Of a stretch of DNA of 64,000 bases, positions 5,759 to 56,987 are shown in pieces. Each line of letters opens with the position of its first letter. Within the stretch, counting starts at the first letter, position 1. A model generated the notes under the pieces. That model was not told the origin of the DNA. It searched no databases and saw only the letters and a list, made by a program, of their open reading frames with translations. Both the position numbers and the translations under genes were made by a program. This DNA comes from Candidatus Parcubacteria bacterium (lineage in GTDB: Bacteria > Patescibacteriota > Minisyncoccia > SURF-38): assembly GCA_003599335.1 (NCBI GenBank), contig QZJN01000003.1, positions 4,654 to 68,653 on the forward strand, given 5' to 3'.

Positions 5759-7191
5759 AAACTAATTTTTTGCAAAGGTTAGAGCAGATTATTTTTTTTG
5801 TTTTGGTTTTTGCCATACCGTTTCAGCTTCGGTTTGTGCTGCATAGTTATGGGATTTCAACCCTTGAGGAATTCAATACTTTATTTTTGTATTTTACCGA
5901 CATTCTTATAGTTGCTCTCTTGATAGTTTTTTTCATGCGTTACGTTGGGGATCAACCTTTAAAGAATTTTTTACGAGAGAGGTGGCGGGTAATTCACGAA
6001 TCTGATCCTCTATACCTTTTTCTTGTTGCTTTTTTTATTTTGACGATTTTAGCTTCTTTTCCTCCCAGAAGCATAGCGGTTTCTTTGTATCATATAGCCA
6101 AAACAGCCGAGTTTCTGTTGTTTTTTGTATACATAGTTTTGGCTTTCAGGCAATACAGCTTGACTGCGATTCTTAAAGTTTTTGTTGCCTCTGCTTTTAT
6201 TCAGGGTGTTATCGGGTTTTTCCAATTCACTTTTGAAAAATCACTTTCTTTAACCTTGCTTGGCGAGGCGGTCTTAGCTCCCGATCTTCCGGAAGTTGTT
6301 AGACTTTTTGTGAAAGAACTTTTCTTATTGCGTCCGTACGGTACGTTTCCCCATCCTCATTTACTTGCAATTTTTTTGGTCCTTGGACTTTTTTTCATTT
6401 CTTATATGATTCTAAAAAAACGTTTTTTTGGAGATTACCCAAACCCTGGATTTTTGCCAAAGGATGAAGAACGTAGGGCTTTTAAAGACAGTTTTATTCG
6501 CATCGGGATGTTGGTGGTTGTTTTTATAATGTTGGTTGGTTTAGCCCTTACATTTTCAAGATCTATAATTGTTGTTGGAATAGCCTTTTTGCTCGCAGGT
6601 TTTTTTTGGCTTTATAGTTCTTCCTGGGGAGCTGTTTTAAGAGAAAGATCAAAATACCTCATGTTTGTTTTTTTGATTTTTGTTATCATTATTGCTTTTA
6701 TGTTCAGGGTTGAGCTTTTTGAAAGGTTTCAGTTGGTTGGTCAGGCTGCGTTGAGTGGTTTTGGTGTTTTGGATAAAACCGCTTTGGACTTTATAGCCGA
6801 AAGGCCTTTGTTTGGTGTTGGCGCCGGGTATTATCCTATCAGACTTGCGGAAGTGAATCCCGATCTTGGTCCTTTACAATTACAGCCTGTAAATAACATT
6901 TATCTTCTTATTGCCGCTGAAACAGGGGTTGTAAATCTTATCTTTTTCATAGCTTTTCTTGGTTATCTTATGTTTGGTCTTGTTAGGGCTTTCAGGCAGG
7001 AAACCGACTTGGTGGCTAAGTTTTGGAAGCAACAACTAATTGCTGTTTTTGCCTTTTTGTTGATAAGTTCGTTTTTTTATCACGGCTTTTGGACTCTTCA
7101 ACAGGGGAGGTTAATTTTTTGGTTTTCTTTAGGGATTTTAGTTGCAACAGCAACAGAAACTAAAAAAGATCTTATTGATTCGGCTATTTAG
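5755..7191 (+). CDS. O-antigen ligase / Wzy-like polytopic membrane protein
   Basis: 478 aa, about 12 TM, with a large periplasmic-loop region between late TM helices, characteristic of O-antigen ligase/polymerase family proteins. 4-nt overlap with the upstream gene. Confidence 0.4.
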   Translation: MKTNFLQRLEQIIFFVLVFAIPFQLRFVLHSYGISTLEEFNTLFLYFTDILIVALLIVFFMRYVGDQPLKNFLRERWRVIHESDPLYLFLVAFFILTILASFPPRSIAVSLYHIAKTAEFLLFFVYIVLAFRQYSLTAILKVFVASAFIQGVIGFFQFTFEKSLSLTLLGEAVLAPDLPEVVRLFVKELFLLRPYGTFPHPHLLAIFLVLGLFFISYMILKKRFFGDYPNPGFLPKDEERRAFKDSFIRIGMLVVVFIMLVGLALTFSRSIIVVGIAFLLAGFFWLYSSSWGAVLRERSKYLMFVFLIFVIIIAFMFRVELFERFQLVGQAALSGFGVLDKTALDFIAERPLFGVGAGYYPIRLAEVNPDLGPLQLQPVNNIYLLIAAETGVVNLIFFIAFLGYLMFGLVRAFRQETDLVAKFWKQQLIAVFAFLLISSFFYHGFWTLQQGRLIFWFSLGILVATATETKKDLIDSAI

Positions 7192-12031: not shown

Positions 12032-12529
12032 CTATTTGGTTTTGGTTATAACCACATTGAATCCGTTGGGCAAAACTTTTATTTCTTCTTCTGTTTTATA
12101 ATTTTTTAACATTGTAAGGAATTCATTGAATTTTTCTCTGGCAAATCTTTTAACAGCTTTTTCTCTTCCTCTAAGGAGCATTTCAACAGTTACTTTATGA
12201 CCTTCCTCAAAAAACTTGTTTATTTGATTTATTTTAACTTCAAGATCGTGTTTTGAAGCTTTAAAGCTAATGCGCACACTTTTAACCTCGCTTTTTTTCT
12301 GAGCAGATTTGCGGGCGAGTTTAGCCTGCTGATAGAGGTATTTGCCGTAATTTACAAATCTTACAACCGGAGGTTCTGTTTTGGCGGCAACTTCCATCAA
12401 ATCAAAACCCCGCTCTGAAGCGAGGTGCATAGCCTCCTGAGTATTCATTACCCCAAGTTGCTTGCCCGTTTCGTCAATAACCCTGACTTTCGGAGATTTA
12501 ATTTGTTGGTTGATTCTGTGCTGTAAAAT
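12032..12529 (-). CDS. infC: Translation initiation factor IF-3, with probable non-canonical ATT start
   Basis: The ATG-ORF begins at the IF3 linker (MNTQEAMHLASERGFDLMEV...). The in-frame upstream sequence encodes (I)LQHRINQQIKSPKVRVIDETGKQLGV, matching the IF3 N-domain (RINxxIRxxEVRLIxExGEQLGV), and begins at an ATT codon at 12529. Confidence 0.8.
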   Translation of the reverse strand: MLQHRINQQIKSPKVRVIDETGKQLGVMNTQEAMHLASERGFDLMEVAAKTEPPVVRFVNYGKYLYQQAKLARKSAQKKSEVKSVRISFKASKHDLEVKINQINKFFEEGHKVTVEMLLRGREKAVKRFAREKFNEFLTMLKNYKTEEEIKVLPNGFNVVITKTK

Positions 12530-12649
12530 AGCTTTTCTATTATTGATGGAAAAATCCTAACAGGTTTATTGAAATTTAGCAAGTTCCTTTCAATTCCTAT
12601 GTTGTATGTTAAAATTACATTTCGTAAGTATTAATCACAAAAATAATTC

Positions 12650-13135
12650 ATGACCTCAAGAGAATTTTTTATTTATACTATTAAAGACGAATCGCCAAGA
12701 TTTGAAAGGCTATTTAAAGCTTTGCCCGACGATAAGTTGAGTTGGCGACCGCACGAGCGAAATAAAAGCGCTATGGAGCTTATGGTTTCTATGGCCAGCG
12801 AGTTTGCTACAATGCCAGATATTTTGCAAAAAGGTGTTGTTGATTTTGTCGAGCTTAAGCCGGTTGCTTTCAAGAACGGCGAAGAAGCAGCTGATTTTTT
12901 TGTAAAGATGTCCCGACAAAGCGCAGATTTGGCTTCAAAAATGACAGATGATGAATGGGAAGAAAAAGCCGAAATGTTGTTAAAAGGAAAAAGCGAATGG
13001 AAAGCGACAAAAAATATAATGGCCTGGGGCCTTATTTTAGATCTTATCCATCACAGGGGTCAGCTTTCGGTTTATATAAGACCGATGGGCGGGCGCGTTC
13101 CGTCAATTTATGGGCCTTCGGGGGATAGCAAATAG
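12650..13135 (+). CDS. DinB/YfiT-like (DinB_2) putative metal-dependent hydrolase
   Basis: About 160-aa four-helix-bundle protein with the C-terminal HHRGQLSVY motif typical of the DinB family. Confidence 0.55.
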   Translation: MTSREFFIYTIKDESPRFERLFKALPDDKLSWRPHERNKSAMELMVSMASEFATMPDILQKGVVDFVELKPVAFKNGEEAADFFVKMSRQSADLASKMTDDEWEEKAEMLLKGKSEWKATKNIMAWGLILDLIHHRGQLSVYIRPMGGRVPSIYGPSGDSK

Positions 13136-13140
13136 ATAAA

Positions 13141-13860
13141 ATGATTTATAAAGTTAGATTAAAAAATAAAGAAGAAGTGGCTGAAGGCACGATGAGTTTT
13201 CATTTTGAAAAACCCAACAAGTTCGATTTTAAGGCCGGTCAACATATAGAAATTACCCTTATAAATCCAAAAGAAACAGACAAAGAAGGCAACACAAGAT
13301 CATTTTCTTTGGTAAATGCTCCTCATCAAGGTGAGCTCATAATAGCAACCAGGATGCGTGACTCGGCTTTTAAGAGAGCCTTGAAAAATTCATCCCCAGG
13401 ATTTGAGGTTGAGATCGGAGGGCCTTATGGATCAATGACTCTTCATAAAGATTCTTCAAAGCCAGCCGTTTTTCTTGCCGGAGGTATAGGCATAACCCCT
13501 TTTATGAGCATGATAAGATACGCCGCTTATGAGAAACTGCCTCATAGGATATATCTTTTTTATTCAAATCGAAGGCCAGAAGATGCAGCTTTTCTTGATG
13601 AACTTAAGCTGATGGAAGGGCAAAACAAAAATTATAGATTTATCGGAACAATGACCGATATGCAGAAATCAAATCATGATTGGCAAGGAGAGAGGGGGTA
13701 CATAAATGAAGGAATGTTCTCCAAATACATTGGTGATTTAGATAAGCCCATATATTATATTGCCGGACCACCAGCGATGGTTAAGGCTTTGAATGAAATG
13801 TTGGTTGCTACTGGCGTGAGTGAAGATAATATTAGGTTTGAAGAATTTGCAGGGTATTGA
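13141..13860 (+). CDS. Ferredoxin-NADP reductase-like FAD/NAD(P)-binding oxidoreductase
   Basis: FAD-binding RSFSL (RxYS-type) motif, a GGIGITPF NAD-binding glycine motif and a C-terminal YIAGPPAMV block. Confidence 0.6.
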   Translation: MIYKVRLKNKEEVAEGTMSFHFEKPNKFDFKAGQHIEITLINPKETDKEGNTRSFSLVNAPHQGELIIATRMRDSAFKRALKNSSPGFEVEIGGPYGSMTLHKDSSKPAVFLAGGIGITPFMSMIRYAAYEKLPHRIYLFYSNRRPEDAAFLDELKLMEGQNKNYRFIGTMTDMQKSNHDWQGERGYINEGMFSKYIGDLDKPIYYIAGPPAMVKALNEMLVATGVSEDNIRFEEFAGY

Positions 13861-13943
13861 CACTACTAATTATTTGTGATATAGATATTTTGTATTGATA
13901 TCAAATCAAGGAGGGGGCTTTGAATTCAATCAAGGAAAGGGTA

Positions 13944-14522
13944 ATGGCTTTGAGGCAAGAGTATCGCTGCGTGCCTTTCGCGCGGTTCACCGAAATAGTT
14001 TTTGAAATCGGCCGCGATGTCGTTTCCAGGGGCGGCAGCGAGGAAGATTGGAATGTCTTGAGGGCGCTTCTTGAGGAAGCCAAGGCAGAAAGCCTCAAGG
14101 AGCGTCGGGCGGAAGAACAAAAGGTTGCGGAGCAGATCGAGAAAATCACCGCTTCCATGTTGCACCGCAAGCTCAAGCTCAATTTGCCCGACGACGTTGA
14201 CCCCGAGCACATCCAGGCCATTTTGGTTTATGGGTTTATCGCTCCCTCGAGCAGCAAGAGATTTGTGGGGAGTAGGTTTCTGCCTGGCGAGCACATCCTC
14301 AAGGATGTGTTCAACAAGCTGGGGCCGAAATTCAACGCTGTGGAGTACCGCGTAGCCTTCAGCTTTCTCGTCAATCACGGGGTTATCCGCGAGCGTTCCA
14401 GGCGCACCACGGTTTACTCCATGAGTGTCAACGAGGGGTCTTCGGAGCTGACCGACTGGGGCATTCAAATCGTTCGTTCGTGCAAGCAGTTTATGCACGA
14501 GCAACACAACCACAACAAATAG
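13944..14522 (+). CDS. GC-rich (about 57%) orphan hypothetical protein
   Basis: Coding-like ORF with a strong compositional contrast to its neighbours. RBS-like AAGGAAAGGG precedes the ATG at 13944 (the track ORF starts earlier, at TTG 13920). Strong terminator follows. The antisense ORF 13926..14513 is interpreted as a shadow ORF. Confidence 0.45.
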   Translation: MALRQEYRCVPFARFTEIVFEIGRDVVSRGGSEEDWNVLRALLEEAKAESLKERRAEEQKVAEQIEKITASMLHRKLKLNLPDDVDPEHIQAILVYGFIAPSSSKRFVGSRFLPGEHILKDVFNKLGPKFNAVEYRVAFSFLVNHGVIRERSRRTTVYSMSVNEGSSELTDWGIQIVRSCKQFMHEQHNHNK

Positions 14523-14532
14523 TTCTTGGCCC

Positions 14533-14578
14533 TGGGGCCTCGTCTAAATCGTAAGATGAGGCCCTGTTTTTTATTTTA
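14533..14578. terminator. Bidirectional rho-independent terminator between the convergent GC-rich orphan gene and pyrG
   Basis: GGGGCCTCGTC..GATGAGGCCC stem followed by TGTTTTTTATTTT. Confidence 0.6.
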
Positions 14579-16214
14579 CTATACGTTTTTTTGAGGCAGC
14601 TTTTATAAAAGAAAAATAGATCGGGTGAGGAAATAAAGGCCGCGATTTAAATTCGGGGTGAAACTGGGTGCCTAAAAAGAAAGGATGATCCGCAAGTTCA
14701 AATATTTCAACCAAAGCTCCTTTTGGCGAAAGCCCCGAGAACAAAGCCCCCTTTTTTTCAAAAGCAATGCGGTATTTATTGTTGAATTCATAACGATGGC
14801 GATGACGTTCTTTTATTGGTGTTTTTATTTTAAATTTGGCGTAAGCTTTTTGGGCCAGAGATTTATCTTTTAAATGACAAGGATAAGCGCCAAGCCTCAT
14901 CGTGCCGCCAAAATGGTTTTTGGCGAGATGCCTCAATTGTTCCGGGATTAAATCAATTACGGGGTGGGGCGTTTTTGGATTGATTTCTTTTGTGTTTGCG
15001 CCTTTTAATTTCAAGACGTTTCGGGCAAATTCAATAACAGCCATTTGCATGCCATAACATATTCCAAGATAAGGAATTTTGTTGACCCTGGCGAAATGTA
15101 CTGCCGAAATTTTTCCTTCCACACCGCGTTCCCCGAAACCACCAGGTATCAGAATGCCATCGTAATTTTTAAGTTCCTTCAGTTTTGTTTTGGATTTTTC
15201 AAATTCAGTGGAATCAATCCAGCTTAAAATGGGCTTTAGGTTTTGAGCCCAAGCAGCGTGTTTTAGGGCTTCTATCAAAGATATATATGAGTCTGAAAAT
15301 GTGAAATCGCCGCTTTTAAAATATTTGCCGACGATAGCTATTTTTACTTCTTTTTTAAAACCTTTAATTTTTGTCGTAAGACGCTTCCAGCTTTTTAAAT
15401 CTTTGGTTTGGGATTTTATTTTAAGTTTTTTAAGAATTTTTGAGCCAAGGCCATCTCGTTCGAAATTAAGAGGAATTTCGTAAATATTCGTCACGTCCGG
15501 AGCCGAGATTACATCTTCTTCGCGGACTCCGCAGAAAGTTGCGAGTTTTCTTTTGCGGGGTATATCAATTGGTTGGTTGGAGCGGCCAATTATAAAATCG
15601 GGCTGAACTCCGGCCGAATTTAACAAATGAGCGGCTGTCTGGGTTGGTTTTGTTTTCATCTCGCCGATTTTTGCAGGAACCGGCAAAAAACTTACCAAAA
15701 TAAAAACAACATCCGACGGATGTTTAAGCTTGAGCATTCTACCGGCTTCTATAAAAAGAAGATTTTGGTATTCTCCGACAGTGCCGCCGATTTCAACGAC
15801 AACAACTTTGGCTTTTGTTTTGCGCGCAGCAATGTTCAATCGTCTGATTATCTCTTCGGGAATGTGAGGCACGGCTTCAACGCATTTTCCGCCATATCCC
15901 AAGGCTCGTTCTTTTTCTATCACGGCCCTGTAAACCCTGCCGGTCGTCATATAGTTCGTTGAGAGAATATTTTGGTCTAAAAATCTTTCGTAATTTCCTA
16001 TATCTTGGTCTGTTTCATCGCCATCTTCGGTCACAAAGACCTCTCCATGTTCTGTCGGGTTCATTGTGCCGGCGTCAACGTTTAAATACGGATCTATTTT
16101 TACGGCCGTTACCGGTACACCCTTGCTTTGTAAAATTTTGGCTATAGAAGCGACCGTGGTGCCTTTGCCAACGCCAGACATTACCCCTCCAACAACAAAA
16201 ATATACTTAACCAT
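14571..16214 (-). CDS. pyrG: CTP synthase
   Basis: MVKYIFVVGGVMSGVGKG N-terminal P-loop-like signature. C-terminal glutamine amidotransferase (GICYGMQ, HPEF). Start placed at MVKYIF (16214) rather than the upstream ATG. Confidence 0.9.
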   Translation of the reverse strand: MVKYIFVVGGVMSGVGKGTTVASIAKILQSKGVPVTAVKIDPYLNVDAGTMNPTEHGEVFVTEDGDETDQDIGNYERFLDQNILSTNYMTTGRVYRAVIEKERALGYGGKCVEAVPHIPEEIIRRLNIAARKTKAKVVVVEIGGTVGEYQNLLFIEAGRMLKLKHPSDVVFILVSFLPVPAKIGEMKTKPTQTAAHLLNSAGVQPDFIIGRSNQPIDIPRKRKLATFCGVREEDVISAPDVTNIYEIPLNFERDGLGSKILKKLKIKSQTKDLKSWKRLTTKIKGFKKEVKIAIVGKYFKSGDFTFSDSYISLIEALKHAAWAQNLKPILSWIDSTEFEKSKTKLKELKNYDGILIPGGFGERGVEGKISAVHFARVNKIPYLGICYGMQMAVIEFARNVLKLKGANTKEINPKTPHPVIDLIPEQLRHLAKNHFGGTMRLGAYPCHLKDKSLAQKAYAKFKIKTPIKERHRHRYEFNNKYRIAFEKKGALFSGLSPKGALVEIFELADHPFFLGTQFHPEFKSRPLFPHPIYFSFIKAASKKRIVK

Positions 16215-16290
16215 CCTTTCTATTTTGCCAGCTTTGAGGAATTTGGGCAAAAAAGAAAAAGGCCAATTTGGGTTAGCCTTTTTCTATCTG

Positions 16291-16309
16291 GTGGAGATGG
16301 GCGGAGTTG
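16291..16309. repeat. 19-nt direct repeat of the tmRNA 3' end (att-like footprint)
   Basis: GTGGAGATGGGCGGAGTTG at 16291-16309 is identical to 16490-16508, the complement of the tmRNA T-arm/acceptor 3' end. Confidence 0.7.
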
Positions 16310-16489
16310 CCTACAACTCTCACCAACTTCCGTTGGCTCGGTCGCAGGCCCGCCTCGCGGTTTGGCTCGCCTGTCGCTCGCCAAACATCGCTCCGGCATT
16401 CAACTCGGCTCGCGAGTAAAGCAGTTTACTCGCTTCTCATCTCCACATAAATCAAAAATTACCCAGCATTTATTGGGTAATTTTTGCTT
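16310..16489 (-). mobile_element. 180-bp GC-rich remnant segment between the tmRNA 3' end and its displaced 19-nt copy; carries the hairpin GCGAGTAAA..TTTACTCGC and the core GAGTTGAATGCCGGA shared with the tRNA-Leu-associated element
   Basis: Hairpin at 16412-16433 (plus-strand coordinates). The 15-nt core at 16392-16406 is the reverse complement of 51199-51213. A tmRNA terminator hairpin lies at 16462-16490. Confidence 0.5.
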
Positions 16490-16786
16490 GTGGAGATGGG
16501 CGGAGTTGAACCGCCGTCCGGAAGAAGCTTGATGACAAAGTTTCTACGAATGTACCCCCGTACGTGGGAGAGACGCTAAAAAGTTCAGTGCCTGCTTGCG
16601 CAGGCGCGCTCAATATATAACACCGGTTTTCTGCCCATTGAGCATCAGCAGGCCGATGGGCTTACTTAAGCGTAAGCCAGTGCCAAGTTTTTGTTGGCAG
16701 TTATAAGTTTTGCACCAGATTTACAAGTTAGTGCAGCTTGATTCGCGCTTTGTCAGAACATTCATCCGTCGAAGCCCGACATCCCC
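16488..16786 (-). ncRNA. ssrA: tmRNA (SsrA), one-piece
   Basis: Minus-strand 5' GGGGAUGUCGGGCUUCGACGG, like the canonical tmRNA 5' end. The 3' end is ..GGACGGCGGUUCAACUCCGCCCAUCUCCA(CA), with a G3:U acceptor pair. The internal tag reading frame is GCC AAC AAA AAC UUG GCA CUG GCU UAC GCU UAA, giving ANKNLALAYA. smpB is immediately upstream. Confidence 0.85.
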
Positions 16787-22548: not shown

Positions 22549-23262
22549 ATGTTGGTTACGCCGGCAATTATTTTAAGAAAGCTGGAAACTAAGGAACACG
22601 ATAAGTTTTTGGAATTACTTACGCCTCAATTCGGAAGAATAGACGTCGTTGCCAGGGGAACAAGAAAAATTGAATCTAAATTAAATCCGCACCTTAATTT
22701 GTTGAATATTCTTGAGGTTGGATTTGTTCAAGGTCCGGCAAATAAAGTTTTGGTTCTCGCAGACACAAAAGAAAAATTTGAAGCTTCTAAAGTTGAGCAG
22801 TACGAGGCCGCTTTTGAAATAATAAGATTGTTAGAAAAATTAACCTGGGCCGAGCTCCCAGAACCAAAAACATTCGTGTTGGCCGAGGAAGGTTTAAAAC
22901 AAATACGACTCTATCCTGATTTTTGCGGTCAGATAACAATAAAGTTCAAAATTAAACTTCTCGAAATTCTTGGTTATAAACCAGAGCTTGAAAAATGCAT
23001 CCATTGTCATAAGAGAGATTTTGTCAAAAAAACCTTTAATTACACCCAAGGAGGGCTAACCTGTAAGGATTGTCTCGGTCCTTACGAGGCGATAGATATT
23101 AAAGAGGAATCTTTTTGGAAAACAACAAACTATCTGCTTAATGATTTTGCTTGGCTTGAGCCGAAACTTAGCGCCGAGGATATAAATCAGCAAACTCGTT
23201 TCATTGATAATCTTTTTAACCATTTTGTTGACGATCGTCAAAAGAATGTAGCCTTTATATGA
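22549..23262 (+). CDS. recO: DNA repair protein RecO
   Basis: N-terminal OB-fold region (PAIILRKLETKEHDKFLELLT..GRIDVVARG) and a C-terminal C4 zinc motif (CIHC..CKDC). Confidence 0.65.
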   Translation: MLVTPAIILRKLETKEHDKFLELLTPQFGRIDVVARGTRKIESKLNPHLNLLNILEVGFVQGPANKVLVLADTKEKFEASKVEQYEAAFEIIRLLEKLTWAELPEPKTFVLAEEGLKQIRLYPDFCGQITIKFKIKLLEILGYKPELEKCIHCHKRDFVKKTFNYTQGGLTCKDCLGPYEAIDIKEESFWKTTNYLLNDFAWLEPKLSAEDINQQTRFIDNLFNHFVDDRQKNVAFI

Positions 23263-49624: not shown

Positions 49625-49747
49625 ACTTTGCGTTTTTGGGCAGGTGGGCGATAAGCGAATAAATGCAGCTTATCGCTAGAGCCAAAAGGCGATTGGGCCG
49701 ACACCTGCCACAGTTTTTTGATCGAGGCTTTGCCGAGAAGTACATGC

Positions 49748-49830
49748 GGGCAGGTGGCGGAATGGCAGACGCGCTGGACTCAAAATCCAGTGAGAGTAAT
49801 CTCGTGAGGGTTCAACTCCCTCCCTGCCCA
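49748..49830 (+). tRNA. tRNA-Leu (anticodon CAA), class II with long variable arm; CCA not encoded
   Basis: GGGCAGG acceptor stem pairing with CCTGCCC then A. D-arm GUGGCGGAAUGGCAGACGCG resembles Leu tRNAs. Anticodon stem-loop CTGGA-CTCAAAA-TCCAG. Long variable arm. T-arm GAGGG-TTCAACT-CCCTC. Confidence 0.8.
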
Positions 49831-49831
49831 C
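49813..49831 (+). repeat. tRNA-Leu 3'-terminal 19 nt (CAACTCCCTCCCTGCCCAC), directly repeated at 51269-51287 (att-like)
   Basis: Exact 19-nt identity between the two positions. Confidence 0.7.
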
Positions 49832-49952
49832 TGGTTGGAGAGTTTTTGTATTGAGAGTAATAAAACATCGCAGAAGCGATGTTTTCTGTTTATAAATGAG
49901 GTTCCAACCTTGAAAAAAGGGTTCTACTCTTTAGTTGTCATAAAAACAAACA

Positions 49953-49990
49953 CGTCCCGCCAGGAAAATCCTAACGGGACGTTTTTTGTT
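49953..49990. terminator. Bidirectional hairpin terminator (ACGTCCCG..CGGGACGT followed by TTTTTT)
   Basis: Perfect 8-bp stem with a T-run. Confidence 0.55.
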
Positions 49991-50822
49991 AATGAAAGAA
50001 CGATTGGGTTTTTGGCACCAGTTTCAACACGCGGATGGAGAGGATCTCGTAATTGAGTACTCCCCACAAAGCGCCGGCAAGTCCGCCGATCAATGCGTTG
50101 CCAAAGTAAAACCCGATGGCCGCGCCAATCGCACCATCCACGCCGCACAGCAAACGGATTTCCGAGTGGATGAGACGGAACCATGTGGCAGAAAATATTG
50201 CCACTGCGTGAATGAAACCGATCAACCCTGACGCGATCACGTTTCTCTTTTGCCACAGGAATCGCGGCAAGTGATAAAAGACGGCCCGCGGCACCAAATA
50301 CAGGAAGAATTTGGGGAGTATCCAGAAATAGACTCTGAATGGGCTGAGGTTAAATAATCCTCCAGCCCTAAATGTCTCTTTGAGTGTATGAACATTCCCA
50401 TGCGGAGTTATGAACAAGGCAAAAAAGAGAGGAAACCCCAACGTGATCAGTGGAAACAAGAATACTATCGGATTAGGGTTTCCCCATAGCATTATTGTTA
50501 AGAGAGAAGCGAAGGGAAATCCAACAATCGTTAGCAGGTCGCCTGCAAGATTGAGGTATGCTTTTCCCCAAGCTCTCCAGAATACCGCGTCCGGCCGCAA
50601 AGTGCGCATCTCATTCCATAATTTGGGAAATGAGTTGCGCATTTTATTCCACGCTTTGGGAACTGCCGCGATCACTTTGTTGAATTCATATGCCAGGTAT
50701 CCGATGGCAAAGCCGGCAATCATGCCGACCCACCAGAACATGGGTGTCATCTGCAGCGCAACGAGCGCGCCGATGAACCCGCCGATGAAACAAGACAGAA
50801 ACACTTTGGCCGTGTGGCTCAT
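49989..50822 (-). CDS. GC-rich polytopic membrane protein, hypothetical (cargo of the tRNA-Leu-associated element)
   Basis: 277 aa, about 8 TM helices, GC well above neighbours. No recognisable family. Confidence 0.4.
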   Translation of the reverse strand: MSHTAKVFLSCFIGGFIGALVALQMTPMFWWVGMIAGFAIGYLAYEFNKVIAAVPKAWNKMRNSFPKLWNEMRTLRPDAVFWRAWGKAYLNLAGDLLTIVGFPFASLLTIMLWGNPNPIVFLFPLITLGFPLFFALFITPHGNVHTLKETFRAGGLFNLSPFRVYFWILPKFFLYLVPRAVFYHLPRFLWQKRNVIASGLIGFIHAVAIFSATWFRLIHSEIRLLCGVDGAIGAAIGFYFGNALIGGLAGALWGVLNYEILSIRVLKLVPKTQSFFH

Positions 50823-51167
50823 AGAGCCCTCCTTTATAAAGTTTGGGTGTCTTTGGGAAATTGAAAAGAGCGAATGTTGGAATTAATATATAACTAAACA
50901 ATATATTTGTCAAGTCAGGTTAGCATAGTGCTACGTAACATAAAGCACGCACCCTTATGAAGGTGTTCAATTTTTTGTACTCTGAAGGTGAAAATTTTTA
51001 GTAGGGAATTACTGGTCCTGACCAGTCATTTTTGCTTTGAGGTTCTCCAACATAGATGAACTTTTGCGGCGGTTCAGCTTCTTTTGGATCTTTGAGCATC
51101 GGGATTACAAATCCAGGATTTTGGATGAAAAAGGTTCGAACGTCATTGAGAGTGGCCCACAACTAAA

Positions 51168-51213
51168 AAATACGAGTAAATTTATTTACTCGTATTTGGA
51201 GTTGAATGCCGGA
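51168..51213 (+). repeat. Conserved module: 14-bp perfect palindromic hairpin AAATACGAGTAAAT/ATTTACTCGTATTT followed by GGAGTTGAATGCCGGA
   Basis: Homologous to the module at 16392-16433 on the opposite strand: same CGAGTAAA..TTTACTCG hairpin core and identical 15-nt GAGTTGAATGCCGGA. Confidence 0.55.
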
Positions 51214-51362
51214 ATCATGCCTTGGCAGATGAGGCGGGGTCGCGAGTTCACAAAGTGAAACTCGTGACCAACTCCCTCCCTGCCCACAATCTAAATTATT
51301 GTTTATCCAAGGGGCCTGAGCCGCTTTTTTGTCATTTTTTTACGTGTTAAGATTGTTATTGT

Positions 51363-56108: not shown

Positions 56109-56987
56109 TTAATTTTTGATACTTAATCTATACAAGCCCTTATTATTCACAATTACGCCTTTAATTTCAAGTGCCGATAAGATTGCGAGCAAATTTGCTA
56201 TAGGCTGGTTGAGTTTTTCGGCTAAGTCTTGAGCACCTAGATTTTCTTGTTTCAGAATTTCTGTTATAATTTTTTCTTCGTGTGAAAGCTCGTATAAATC
56301 TTTATTTTTATGTTCAAACCTTGTTTTGAACTGCGGAAATTCCTCCAGGATATCTTCTGTCTTTGAAACAAGCTTTGCCCCTTGTTGGATTAGTTTATTT
56401 GGTCCTTGGGAATTTAAATTATAGATTGGTCCTGGAATTGCAAAGACATCGCGATTTTGGTTTAAGGCATGTTCGGCTGTAAGCAAAGCCCCGCTTTTTT
56501 CTTTAGCTTCAATCACAAGAACTCCCAAAGATAATCCGCTGACAATCCGATTGCGGAGGGGAAAATGATGAGGCATTGCCGGGACGCCTTCTTCGTGCTC
56601 GCTCAAAACAGCCCCGCCATTTTCTACTATCTGTTTGGCTAATTTATAATTTTCGCTAGGATAGAAGCTTTTTTCGTCCATCCCCGAGCCGATAACGCCA
56701 ATGGTTTTCCCTTTTACAAAAAGAGCTCCTTTATGGGCCTGTTCGTCTATTCCGCGGGCCATTCCGGAAACTATTACTAAGCCAGTCTGAGCAAGGTCTG
56801 CAGCAAATTTATAAGCCGCTTCTTTGCCATATTCAGATGCTCGGCGCGTACCGACAATGGCAATCGAGGGTTTGGTTAAAATGTCGGCATTTCCCCAAAG
56901 AAAAAAATGTTTAGGGGCATTATGTATTTCTTTGAGCTGGGATGGATATGATGGGTCGTTGAGGTGGATTTTTTTAAAATCAGACAT
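56109..56987 (-). CDS. dprA: DNA processing protein DprA (Smf)
   Basis: Rossmann-like DprA core (IAIVGTRRASEYGKEAAYKFAADLAQTGLVIVSGMARGID) and a C-terminal winged-helix. Confidence 0.85.
   Translation of the reverse strand: MSDFKKIHLNDPSYPSQLKEIHNAPKHFFLWGNADILTKPSIAIVGTRRASEYGKEAAYKFAADLAQTGLVIVSGMARGIDEQAHKGALFVKGKTIGVIGSGMDEKSFYPSENYKLAKQIVENGGAVLSEHEEGVPAMPHHFPLRNRIVSGLSLGVLVIEAKEKSGALLTAEHALNQNRDVFAIPGPIYNLNSQGPNKLIQQGAKLVSKTEDILEEFPQFKTRFEHKNKDLYELSHEEKIITEILKQENLGAQDLAEKLNQPIANLLAILSALEIKGVIVNNKGLYRLSIKN

Follow-up and report, generated by a model that had tools for sequence, protein, structure and literature searches.

Both genes of tRNA type in one stretch of Patescibacteria DNA are followed by the same short module and, behind it, by a copy of the gene's own 3′ end, which raises the question of what this module is and how it came to stand there twice. 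The window analysed here is the whole stretch of 64,000 nt, taken from a Candidatus Parcubacteria MAG. Only two tRNA-type genes, those of tmRNA (ssrA) and tRNA-Leu(CAA), are recognized in it by ARAGORN and Rfam. Each carries on its 3′ side a co-oriented module consisting, in the same order, of a perfect hairpin, the 15-mer GAGTTGAATGCCGGA, a GAGGCGGG block, and an exact 19-nt copy of the gene 3′ end, CAACTCCGCCCATCTCCAC for tmRNA and CAACTCCCTCCCTGCCCAC for tRNA-Leu (Table 1). There is no third exact copy of the 15-mer in the window, and the hairpin pattern CGAGTAAA-N4-TTTACTCG is found only at these two sites, with 0 matches expected (100 shuffles). The repeats begin at both sites at the identical T-loop position, TT|C56, and the segment between them has a length of 199 nt for ssrA and 1456 nt for Leu. 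The original prediction, made from sequence alone, had claimed that the two modules are homologous, with a shared hairpin and an identical core located 55–82 nt inside the distal repeat, and that their order and orientation relative to the host RNA gene are the same. The homology held, as the exact 15-mer and the hairpin each occur exactly twice; 82 nt separate the 15-mer from the distal copy at ssrA, compared with 55 nt at Leu, and order and orientation agree at both sites in every detail.

The arrangement of both sites is that of an insertion into the gene. In the Islander description of tRNA-gene islands of the tyrosine-integrase type, the gene is regenerated and a 3′ fragment broken at the T-loop is displaced (PMC4383910); at both window sites the target gene is likewise regenerated by element sequence, and the displaced 3′ fragment stands as a direct repeat at the far end. 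Empty attB sites are present in related genomes. In two syntenic relatives, L134 and L135, the order PAP2, tRNA-Leu(CAA), ParB is found with only 167 and 257 bp between the genes (ParB 71% identical), and their tRNA-Leu sites contain neither the module nor the 277-aa open reading frame (ORF) of the window's insert. The tmRNA gene of another relative, L060, has the same 3′ end and no module. The tRNA-Leu of L135 is identical to that of the window at 83 of 84 positions, and its 3′ trailer shows homology to the sequence that flanks the distal copy in the window; because of this match, the distal copy is taken as the displaced native end and the proximal copy as the one that came with the element. 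The insertion geometry and its empty site are thus shown by comparison with relatives. No further displaced copies marking a larger island beyond the module were found within the loci examined. Neither an excised form nor polymorphism within one population was observed, all samples carrying the L047 copy being occupied (3/3).

Table 1. Parts of the two modules and their neighbourhood, numbered from the first nucleotide of the window.
Site	Feature	Positions	Strand	Basis or score
ssrA	tmRNA (ssrA) gene	16490-16786	-	ARAGORN; Rfam RF00023, 122.9 bits
ssrA	Proximal, element-supplied copy: last 19 nt of tmRNA from T-loop C56	16490-16508	-	repeat mapping
ssrA	Intrinsic terminator in the insert, directly 3′ of the regenerated tmRNA end	16453-16486	-	
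ssrA	P0 5′ strand UGGAGAUG, pairing with the acceptor-strand part of the distal copy, CAUCUCCA	16438-16445	-	MFE fold
ssrA	Hairpin hp1, GCGAGUAAA-CUGC-UUUACUCGC; the hairpin of the original prediction	16412-16433	-	
ssrA	Hairpin pattern CGAGTAAA-N4-TTTACTCG	16413-16432		
ssrA	Guide and junction, GAGUUGAA-U-GCCGGA	16392-16406	-	
ssrA	15-mer GAGTTGAATGCCGGA	16392-16406	-	exact match
ssrA	P2 arm: GCC/GGC closing stem, GGA/GA internal loop, variable hairpin	16352-16397	-	RNAalifold; pair counts
ssrA	GAGGCGGG block	16349-16356	-	
ssrA	P3 arm with the family-wide invariant G.U; stops right before the distal copy	16310-16350	-	RNAalifold; pair counts
ssrA	Distal copy of the tmRNA 3′ end, C56 to C74, then encoded CCA	16291-16309	-	
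ssrA	Second terminator, 3′ of the distal tmRNA copy	16254-16285	-	
ssrA	Segment between repeats, 199 nt	16310-16508		
ssrA	Covariance-model match, whole module	16289-16414	-	106.5 bits, E 1.3e-25
Leu	tRNA-Leu(CAA) gene	49748-49831	+	ARAGORN; Rfam
Leu	Proximal, element-supplied tRNA-Leu copy from C56	49813-49831	+	repeat mapping
Leu	Terminator carried by the insert	49862-49885	+	
Leu	Own terminator of the ORF	49952-49982		
Leu	ORF read as cargo: 277 aa, multi-pass membrane protein, Patescibacteria-wide hypothetical family	49989-50822	-	
Leu	Own promoter of the ORF	50885-50913		
Leu	Hairpin hp1, AUACGAGUAAAU-UUA-UUUACUCGUAU	51168-51197	+	
Leu	Hairpin pattern CGAGTAAA-N4-TTTACTCG	51173-51192		
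Leu	Guide and junction, GGAGUUGAA-U-GCCGGA	51198-51213	+	
Leu	15-mer GAGTTGAATGCCGGA	51199-51213	+	exact match
Leu	P2 arm	51208-51235	+	
Leu	GAGGCGGG block	51231-51238	+	
Leu	P3 arm, GGUCGCGAGUUCAC-AAA-GUGAAACUCGUGACC, with the conserved G.U	51238-51268	+	
Leu	Distal copy, the displaced native tRNA-Leu 3′ end; 3′ flank homologous to the L135 tRNA trailer	51269-51287	+	
Leu	Segment between repeats, 1456 nt	49813-51268		
Leu	Covariance-model match, whole module	51191-51289	+	82.8 bits, E 2.1e-19

Further copies were sought with the pattern 15-mer-N-GAGGCGGG (23 exact nt) and afterwards with a covariance model, R1. The pattern scan gave nine further distinct copies, in metagenomes and in one Patescibacteria genome. 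The GTDB species genomes contain one genuine match (L002, a Patescibacteria MAG), with the module behind tRNA-Gly, and the metagenomes contain eight distinct ones, at tRNA-Cys, Leu-CAG, Leu-CAA, Lys-UUU, Trp, Pro, and tmRNA; the model added one divergent copy, at tRNA-Lys(CUU) in L046. The targets are overall Leu-CAA (two), Leu-CAG, Gly, Cys, Lys-UUU, Trp, Pro, tmRNA (two), and Lys-CUU, i.e., eight tRNA species and tmRNA. Each copy lies 26–110 nt behind a co-oriented tRNA or tmRNA gene, with a single exception at 1.4 kb, and all nine copies found by pattern, as well as the two in the window, end in a copy of the gene 3′ end starting at T-loop C56. Scores with the model range from 51 to 120 bits. 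The few pattern matches not located beside a tRNA lie in coding sequence of unrelated bacteria and failed the model. A family with a common anatomy is thereby shown. It has to be kept in mind that all copies but one were found via the 23-nt exact pattern, so the invariance of this block is partly built in and the true diversity is unsampled. The divergent copy (L046 2150-2365, -), which has a different guide and a 4-nt duplication (CACA) only, retains the P2/GGGG/P3 core, in which the closing pair of P2 is flipped in a compensatory manner, and raises the possibility that the family is much broader than a scan for the exact pattern could show.

The elements are 0.13–0.25 kb long and without ORF, 10 of 11 inserts falling in this range (130–250 nt); the Leu copy with its additional gene reaches 1.46 kb. 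The 277-aa protein encoded there has no Pfam domain and about 70 homologues, which are ordinary Patescibacteria genes, and neither tRNA nor module is near the four homologue loci examined. A role of this gene as a mobility or marker gene was rejected on these two grounds, absence of a Pfam domain and homologues unlinked to tRNAs, and the gene, standing in the variable spacer, is best taken for cargo. Two different tRNA genes (Lys-UUU and Pro) harbour modules with 84% identity, whose guides differ to match, whereas the two tmRNA copies are only 53% identical, which indicates that targets were switched repeatedly. One tRNA-Leu(CAA) gene carries a tandem double insertion (L048 1016-1467, the same as L052 6690-7121), in which a 94-nt unit made up of 3′ end, spacer, and guide occurs twice (99% identity), once with a normal module behind it and once with a 127-nt segment that is unrelated and unstructured, and a third 3′-end copy comes after these. 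This segment, "B," was considered as an alternative module type and rejected, since no significant structure was detected in it (z -0.6).

The copies share one fold. Hairpin hp1 comes first and is followed by helix P1, which closes a three-way junction with arms P2 and P3. P1 is formed by the guide (N3-4+GGAGUUGAA) paired with C56–C65 of the 3′-end copy; P2 is closed by a GCC/GGC stem and contains a GGA/GA internal loop and a variable hairpin, and P3 stands on the base GUCGC/GUGAC and varies in its upper part. A further helix, P0, is seen in several copies (ssrA, and analogously L002, L051, and L056), where nucleotides 5′ of hp1 pair with the acceptor-strand portion of the 3′-end copy. For the ssrA-site module, the MFE fold has -80.5 kcal/mol (z -7.4). 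RNAalifold on eight copies gave 27 pairs, 15 with compensatory changes. When ten copies were aligned to model R1, 95.4% of cells were paired and 16 of the 27 pairs showed compensatory double changes; the covariation score was 0.499, compared with 0.19 in shuffles (reached in 0/500) and at most 0.09 in slid controls. The fold with its covariation is accordingly shown. The sequence of the hairpins varies while their pairing co-varies, and G.U wobbles occur on the tRNA-sense strand only; one G.U pair of P3 is invariant in 10/10 copies. As these wobbles make sense only in the tRNA-sense strand, the folded molecule is either the top DNA strand or an RNA co-transcribed with the tRNA, and co-varying pairing with strand-specific wobbles indicates a folded single strand, not duplex repeats bound by protein. 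Which of the two nucleic acids folds is debatable. GNRA loops (GGAA twice, GUGA, GUAA) and tandem G.A motifs point to RNA; GCGAAGC mini-hairpins, found in copies as well, favour a role at the DNA level, as does the position of most modules downstream of an intrinsic terminator and without a recognisable promoter. On balance the evidence leans, if only slightly, to RNA over single-stranded DNA. A conserved small ORF, suggested by the resemblance of the core to GGAG-N4-AUG, was rejected, because stops follow after 3–8 codons in L048, L054, and the window's Leu copy.

In the guide, the conserved GAGTTGAA is the reverse complement of TTCAACTC, a T-loop sequence, and the three or four bases 5′ of GGAGUUG co-vary with the T-stem of each target; the match of guide and T-stem reads GGGAGAGUUG/CAACUCUCCC in L047, GCGGGAGUUG/CAAUUCCCGC in L046, GGGGGAGUUG/CGACUCCCCC in L002, and UUGGAGUUG/CGACUCCAA in L051. 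At ssrA, GAGUUG pairs with C56–C61 of the 3′-end copy within P1, and AA is complementary to T54–T55 of the target. The targeted T-loops (n=10) are TTCAACTCC, TTCGACTCC, TTCAATTCC, or TTCAACTCT, and 10/10 pair with the guide, some by wobble; the four untargeted tRNAs in the same loci have G59 (TTCGAGNNN or another T-loop), which would clash with it. In the divergent L046 copy the guide, CAUGUGCA, is complementary to the very 3′ end of tRNA-Lys(CUU). Guides of both classes cover 2 nt upstream of the junction, with AA opposite TT, or CA opposite TG in the divergent one; their length is 9–12 nt, 2 nt on the 5′ side and 7–10 nt on the 3′ side of the insertion point. Where proximal and distal copies differ (L053 and L056), the guide fits the proximal, element-borne copy better, and in the divergent copy it pairs well only with the proximal junction. 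The match of guide and target is shown. Since the guide changes with the target, both in the bases that co-vary with the T-stem and in the divergent copy, the conservation of GAGTTGAA reflects a conserved target and not catalysis. Comparison also shows that the guide is retargetable, given the divergent guide and the matching guide differences of the Lys and Pro modules. That base pairing of the guide selects the insertion site is an inference, and it is not settled which pairing is functional.

No enzyme could be assigned to the family. Pfam searches found no recombinase, transposase, or reverse transcriptase among the 45 ORFs of the window or among the 28 ORFs within 4 kb of seven other copies, and no protein family recurs beside the modules. 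Retention of att sites in the absence of mobility genes, the mark of a non-autonomous element, is thus met. No cognate autonomous element with the same ends was found among 11 loci, viral contigs, plasmids, and phages (whole genomes were outside the model search). In 2.9 million viral contigs, three pattern scans gave only chance matches in coding sequence, none of which passed the model, and blastn against PLSDB and INPHARED gave no match; a phage or plasmid origin was rejected for want of any copy in these three collections. Rfam searches, run over the whole window with the gathering threshold and over either kind of site with E<=10, yielded nothing beyond tmRNA, tRNA, and noise.

With these data the remaining parts of the original prediction can be judged. 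It had proposed a family of small elements tied to duplicated 3′ ends of stable-RNA genes, and it had considered non-autonomous, tRNA-targeting elements or arm-type recombinase binding sites. The family held, with further copies, all behind tRNA or tmRNA genes, and so did its non-autonomous, tRNA-targeting character; arm-type sites are unsupported, given varying hairpin sequence, co-varying pairing, and wobbles on the tRNA-sense strand only. Its statement that 3′ ends are captured or duplicated can be sharpened, the distal copy being the displaced native 3′ end and the proximal copy being supplied by the element. The idea was to fall if the motif proved a generic repeat away from tRNA and tmRNA genes or if only two chance copies without conservation existed. 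Neither is the case: every genuine copy adjoins a tRNA or tmRNA 3′ end, and the module is conserved in other genomes. Among the checks it suggested, the pattern search with tabulation of tRNAs gave the nine more distinct copies, each with a tRNA or tmRNA 3′-end copy, the look for a co-occurring recombinase gave none in the window ORFs or beside the seven other copies, and folding gave the co-varying three-way junction. The module had not been recognised as a described element; no published description of such elements was found in the full-text literature searched, and within that literature the family is probably undescribed.

Several known systems share single traits with the modules. Tyrosine-integrase islands and prophages (Islander) have in common with them insertion at the T-loop, a replacement 3′ end, a displaced native fragment at the far end, and empty relatives. 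However, the modules measure 0.13–0.25 kb (1.46 kb with cargo) and not several kb or more, they have no integrase or other mobility gene and mostly no ORF at all, and the end by the displaced fragment is a co-varying three-way junction with a guide in place of duplex arm sites. Integron attC and the attP(+) of CTX phage (XerCD, IMEX) are folded single-strand recombination sites, defined by the secondary structure of one strand, in which sequence is variable and pairing as well as certain unpaired or wobble positions are conserved. Strand-specific structure, small size, a recombinase that need not be encoded, and possible tandem stacking are similar in the modules. In contrast to attC, the core boxes are reversed (5′-GAGTTG...CAACTC-3′, not RYYYAAC...GTTRRRY), the target is a tRNA T-loop and not attI or dif, and GNRA loops and tandem G.A motifs are more RNA-like. 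No integron integrase IntI was found near the modules (Pfam), and no link to IntI or Xer is shown; with reversed box polarity and without IntI, identity with attC is not met.

Group I introns, which are abundant in tRNA genes of Patescibacteria, and IStrons resemble the modules in a guide that lies 5′ of the core and pairs with both sides of the junction, in stable-RNA hosts, and in insertion harmless to the host gene. The modules, however, have no group I core and no Rfam match, and the host gene is uninterrupted owing to the spare 3′ exon. Group I identity is not met, with no RF00028 match even at E<=10 and a core of about 100 nt with two arms; the splice site does not conform either, as U55 faces A, no more than 2 nt of the 5′ side are paired, and the last nucleotide is C in 8/10. 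The nearest paper in the literature searched describes group I introns in anticodon loops and did not detect group II introns in Patescibacteria (PMC13011429). IS200/IS605 elements (IS608) and their PATE derivatives are single-strand-specific, with subterminal hairpins and, beside a hairpin, short DNA guides that pair with the site of cleavage or the target, and protein-less derivatives are mobilised in trans. A strand-specific hairpin with an adjacent guide that pairs with the target, and the lack of a protein, are common to both; on the other hand, the guide of the modules has 9–12 nt and not 4, hp1 and P3 are unrelated, and a 19-nt target copy is carried. An IS200/IS605 PATE or a TnpB right-end RNA is not supported, without TnpA/TnpB or a match to Rfam IS605-orfB. 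The same holds for an IS110-family bridge or seek RNA, as there is a single contiguous guide, helical in the fold, in place of bipartite guides for target and donor in two internal loops, and no adjacent gene where a DEDD recombinase is expected, and for the known small self-cleaving ribozymes (hammerhead, twister, pistol, hatchet, HDV-like, and others), for which Rfam 15 gave no match at E<=10 and the CUGANGA...GAAA core is missing.

The reading that we favour, by a modest margin, is that of miniature, protein-less, non-autonomous, guide-programmed insertion elements homing to position 55/56 of tRNA and tmRNA genes in Patescibacteria; with the same reserve, the window modules would be the structured right-hand parts of two members of one such family. 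The order of an element would be its own 3′-end copy from C56, usually a terminator, a permissive spacer, hp1, the guide of 9–12 nt, and the core, i.e., P2, GGGG, and P3 ending in GUGAC, in a three-way junction. It is proposed that insertion between T55 and C56 would push the native 3′ end downstream, where it would be left as the distal copy, and that the element's own 3′ end and terminator would keep the host gene alive. Pairing of the guide would be with the target, spanning the junction, and in the free form with the element's own copy; the latter would close the fold, which would be confined to the tRNA-sense strand, whether RNA or single-stranded DNA. The conserved module would then be the folded site at which strand exchange occurs, by an enzyme supplied in trans; this might be an RNA-guided enzyme, or else a recombinase, from the host or a helper, that acts on the folded site. 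With the enzyme unidentified, the case for mobility is purely comparative, and that the elements are still mobile is inferred. A fold made as RNA is also awkward for this proposal, because most copies lie behind an intrinsic terminator without a recognisable promoter. In a bolder version, which we hold to be rather the less probable, the module would be a self-contained, programmable guide device, RNA or folded single-stranded DNA, that recognises its site in tRNA T-loops through 9–12 nt of pairing and catalyses strand exchange itself or recruits a general host enzyme; its catalysis is inferred. If true, it would represent a protein-less, guide-directed mobile element whose host gene is kept alive via a spare 3′ end.

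Among the alternatives, an intron-like ribozyme of the T-loop remains possible. Its guide would pair with the exon junction (UU|C56), and it would splice the tRNA to the distal 3′ exon and reverse-splice into new tRNAs; such catalysis is inferred, the carried 3′ exon would make splicing dispensable in established insertions, and fixation in the genome would need a reverse transcriptase or recombination. This is supported by the guide 5′ of the core that spans the junction (compare P1/P10 of group I), by a "3′ exon" at the 3′ end, by the invariant G.U, GNRA loops, and tandem G.A typical of RNA, and by the absence of an encoded protein; frequent switching of targets would also be easier if a mis-inserted copy can be spliced out. 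Against it stand the lack of any Rfam ribozyme or intron match at E<=10, a two-armed core of about 100 nt that is far below the size of the group I core, the absence of a U.G at the 5′ junction and of a conserved terminal G, and terminators between tRNA and module in most copies. Moreover, no reverse transcriptase was found, and group II introns are undetected in Patescibacteria (PMC13011429).

It is less likely that the module serves the host as a structured RNA, located in the tRNA or tmRNA trailer as a small RNA whose 3′ end is tRNA-like, a processing signal, or a spare donor of 3′ fragments, and spread among tRNA loci via duplication and homologous recombination following natural transformation. 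A fold kept by purifying selection across copies 52–84% identical, the mimicry of an acceptor/T-arm stack by P0 and P1 that ends in the discriminator base with or without CCA, CCA encoded in the distal copy only (three copies), the presence of DprA and RecO, and an identical copy in three samples would all fit. However, the distribution is patchy over at least nine target genes, with empty sites in close relatives and a tandem double copy, the divergent copy has a retargeted guide, the module is preceded by terminators, and simple duplication leaves the complementarity of guide and junction unexplained. Deletion relics of integrase islands or prophages, in which the module would be an attP arm with integrase and excisionase sites, would account for the regenerated gene and displaced T-loop fragment, which are exactly the geometry of tyrosine-integrase islands (PMC4383910), and for the 1.2 kb of foreign-looking DNA in the Leu copy. 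This is nevertheless very unlikely: 10/11 inserts have 130–250 nt and the same ordered architecture where random deletions would vary in size, no integrase is present in any locus examined, pairing is kept despite sequence change with strand-specific wobbles, unlike in duplex arm sites, and neither the 2.9 million viral contigs nor PLSDB and INPHARED gave a match. Chance similarity or a generic repeat, for which only the short length of the exact blocks could be cited, is all but excluded by the 0 hairpin matches expected, model scores of 51–120 bits, and the perfect association with tRNA 3′ ends.

If we return to the favoured reading of guide-programmed insertion elements, its meaning lies in the comparison with integration into tRNA genes as it is usually understood, namely as the work of integrase-encoding islands and phages. 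The elements described here show that geometry at 1/100 of the size and with no protein gene, and their landing site is apparently set by a short, retargetable guide within a conserved fold. Should the guide direct insertion, this would be a new minimal form of site-specific integration, RNA-guided, ssDNA-guided, or ribozyme-based, each potentially reprogrammable, and a type of mobile element would be added to the Patescibacteria, whose reduced genomes are thought to be poor in them. In practice, displaced tRNA fragments and modules can mislead the annotation of tRNAs and genomic islands, and covariance model R1 offers a handle for surveys of the family.

Some further observations concern the surroundings of the modules. 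The tRNA-Leu(CAA) gene with its native trailer lies on the opposite strand relative to PAP2/ParB when the window (49625-49831) is compared with L134 (9851-9934) and L135 (5757-5840). This difference in arrangement indicates that the locus was inverted in one lineage, and because of the inversion the history of the Leu site is more complex than a single insertion. Partial copies of the tRNA-Leu 5′ end are present in the window, direct at 49637-49647 and inverted near 49700-49712. In L135, which has no module, an interrupted partial second copy of the tRNA-Leu 5′ half is located at 5882-5926, with 40 nt between it and the intact gene; a different rearrangement or element that acted on the 5′ side may have left it as a scar. 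A rule of replication strand (lagging-strand template) was considered as well and is unsupported, the window copies being on opposite strands under a uniformly positive GC skew, and two copies are too few to judge it.

In three elements (window 16289-16291 versus 16487-16489, L002, and L051), CCA is encoded in the displaced native copy and not in the element-supplied 3′ end; since only the displaced copy encodes it, insertion makes a CCA-encoding gene dependent on the CCA-adding enzyme. Around ssrA, the tmRNA trailer of a relative with 70% identical SmpB (L063 3083-3130) resembles the element-borne trailer of the window (CAAAAATTAYCCA), and a GC-rich perfect hairpin that follows it just before the contig end is possibly the start of another element. 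In L060 (3450-4367) infC directly follows ssrA. In the window these two genes are separated (12032-16250) by pyrG and three opposite-strand genes: a DinB-family gene, a FAD/NAD oxidoreductase gene, and a GC-rich 200-aa ORF (13920-14522) without Pfam hits. The window also contains genes of DprA (56109-56987, -) and RecO (22549-23262, +), consistent with uptake and recombination of single-stranded DNA as a possible route by which small elements spread. Its region 38000-42000, with about 50% G+C compared with 39% in the genome, an Ig-domain protein gene (39326-41131), and several ORFs without Pfam hits, is likely foreign DNA unrelated to the modules. Lastly, genes of an AbiEii toxin (L053 8280-9544) and of a HerA/TraG-like ATPase (L055 5516-7144) lie just beyond the displaced fragment in these two loci, whose tRNA sites may also have served for other DNA of mobile or defence type.
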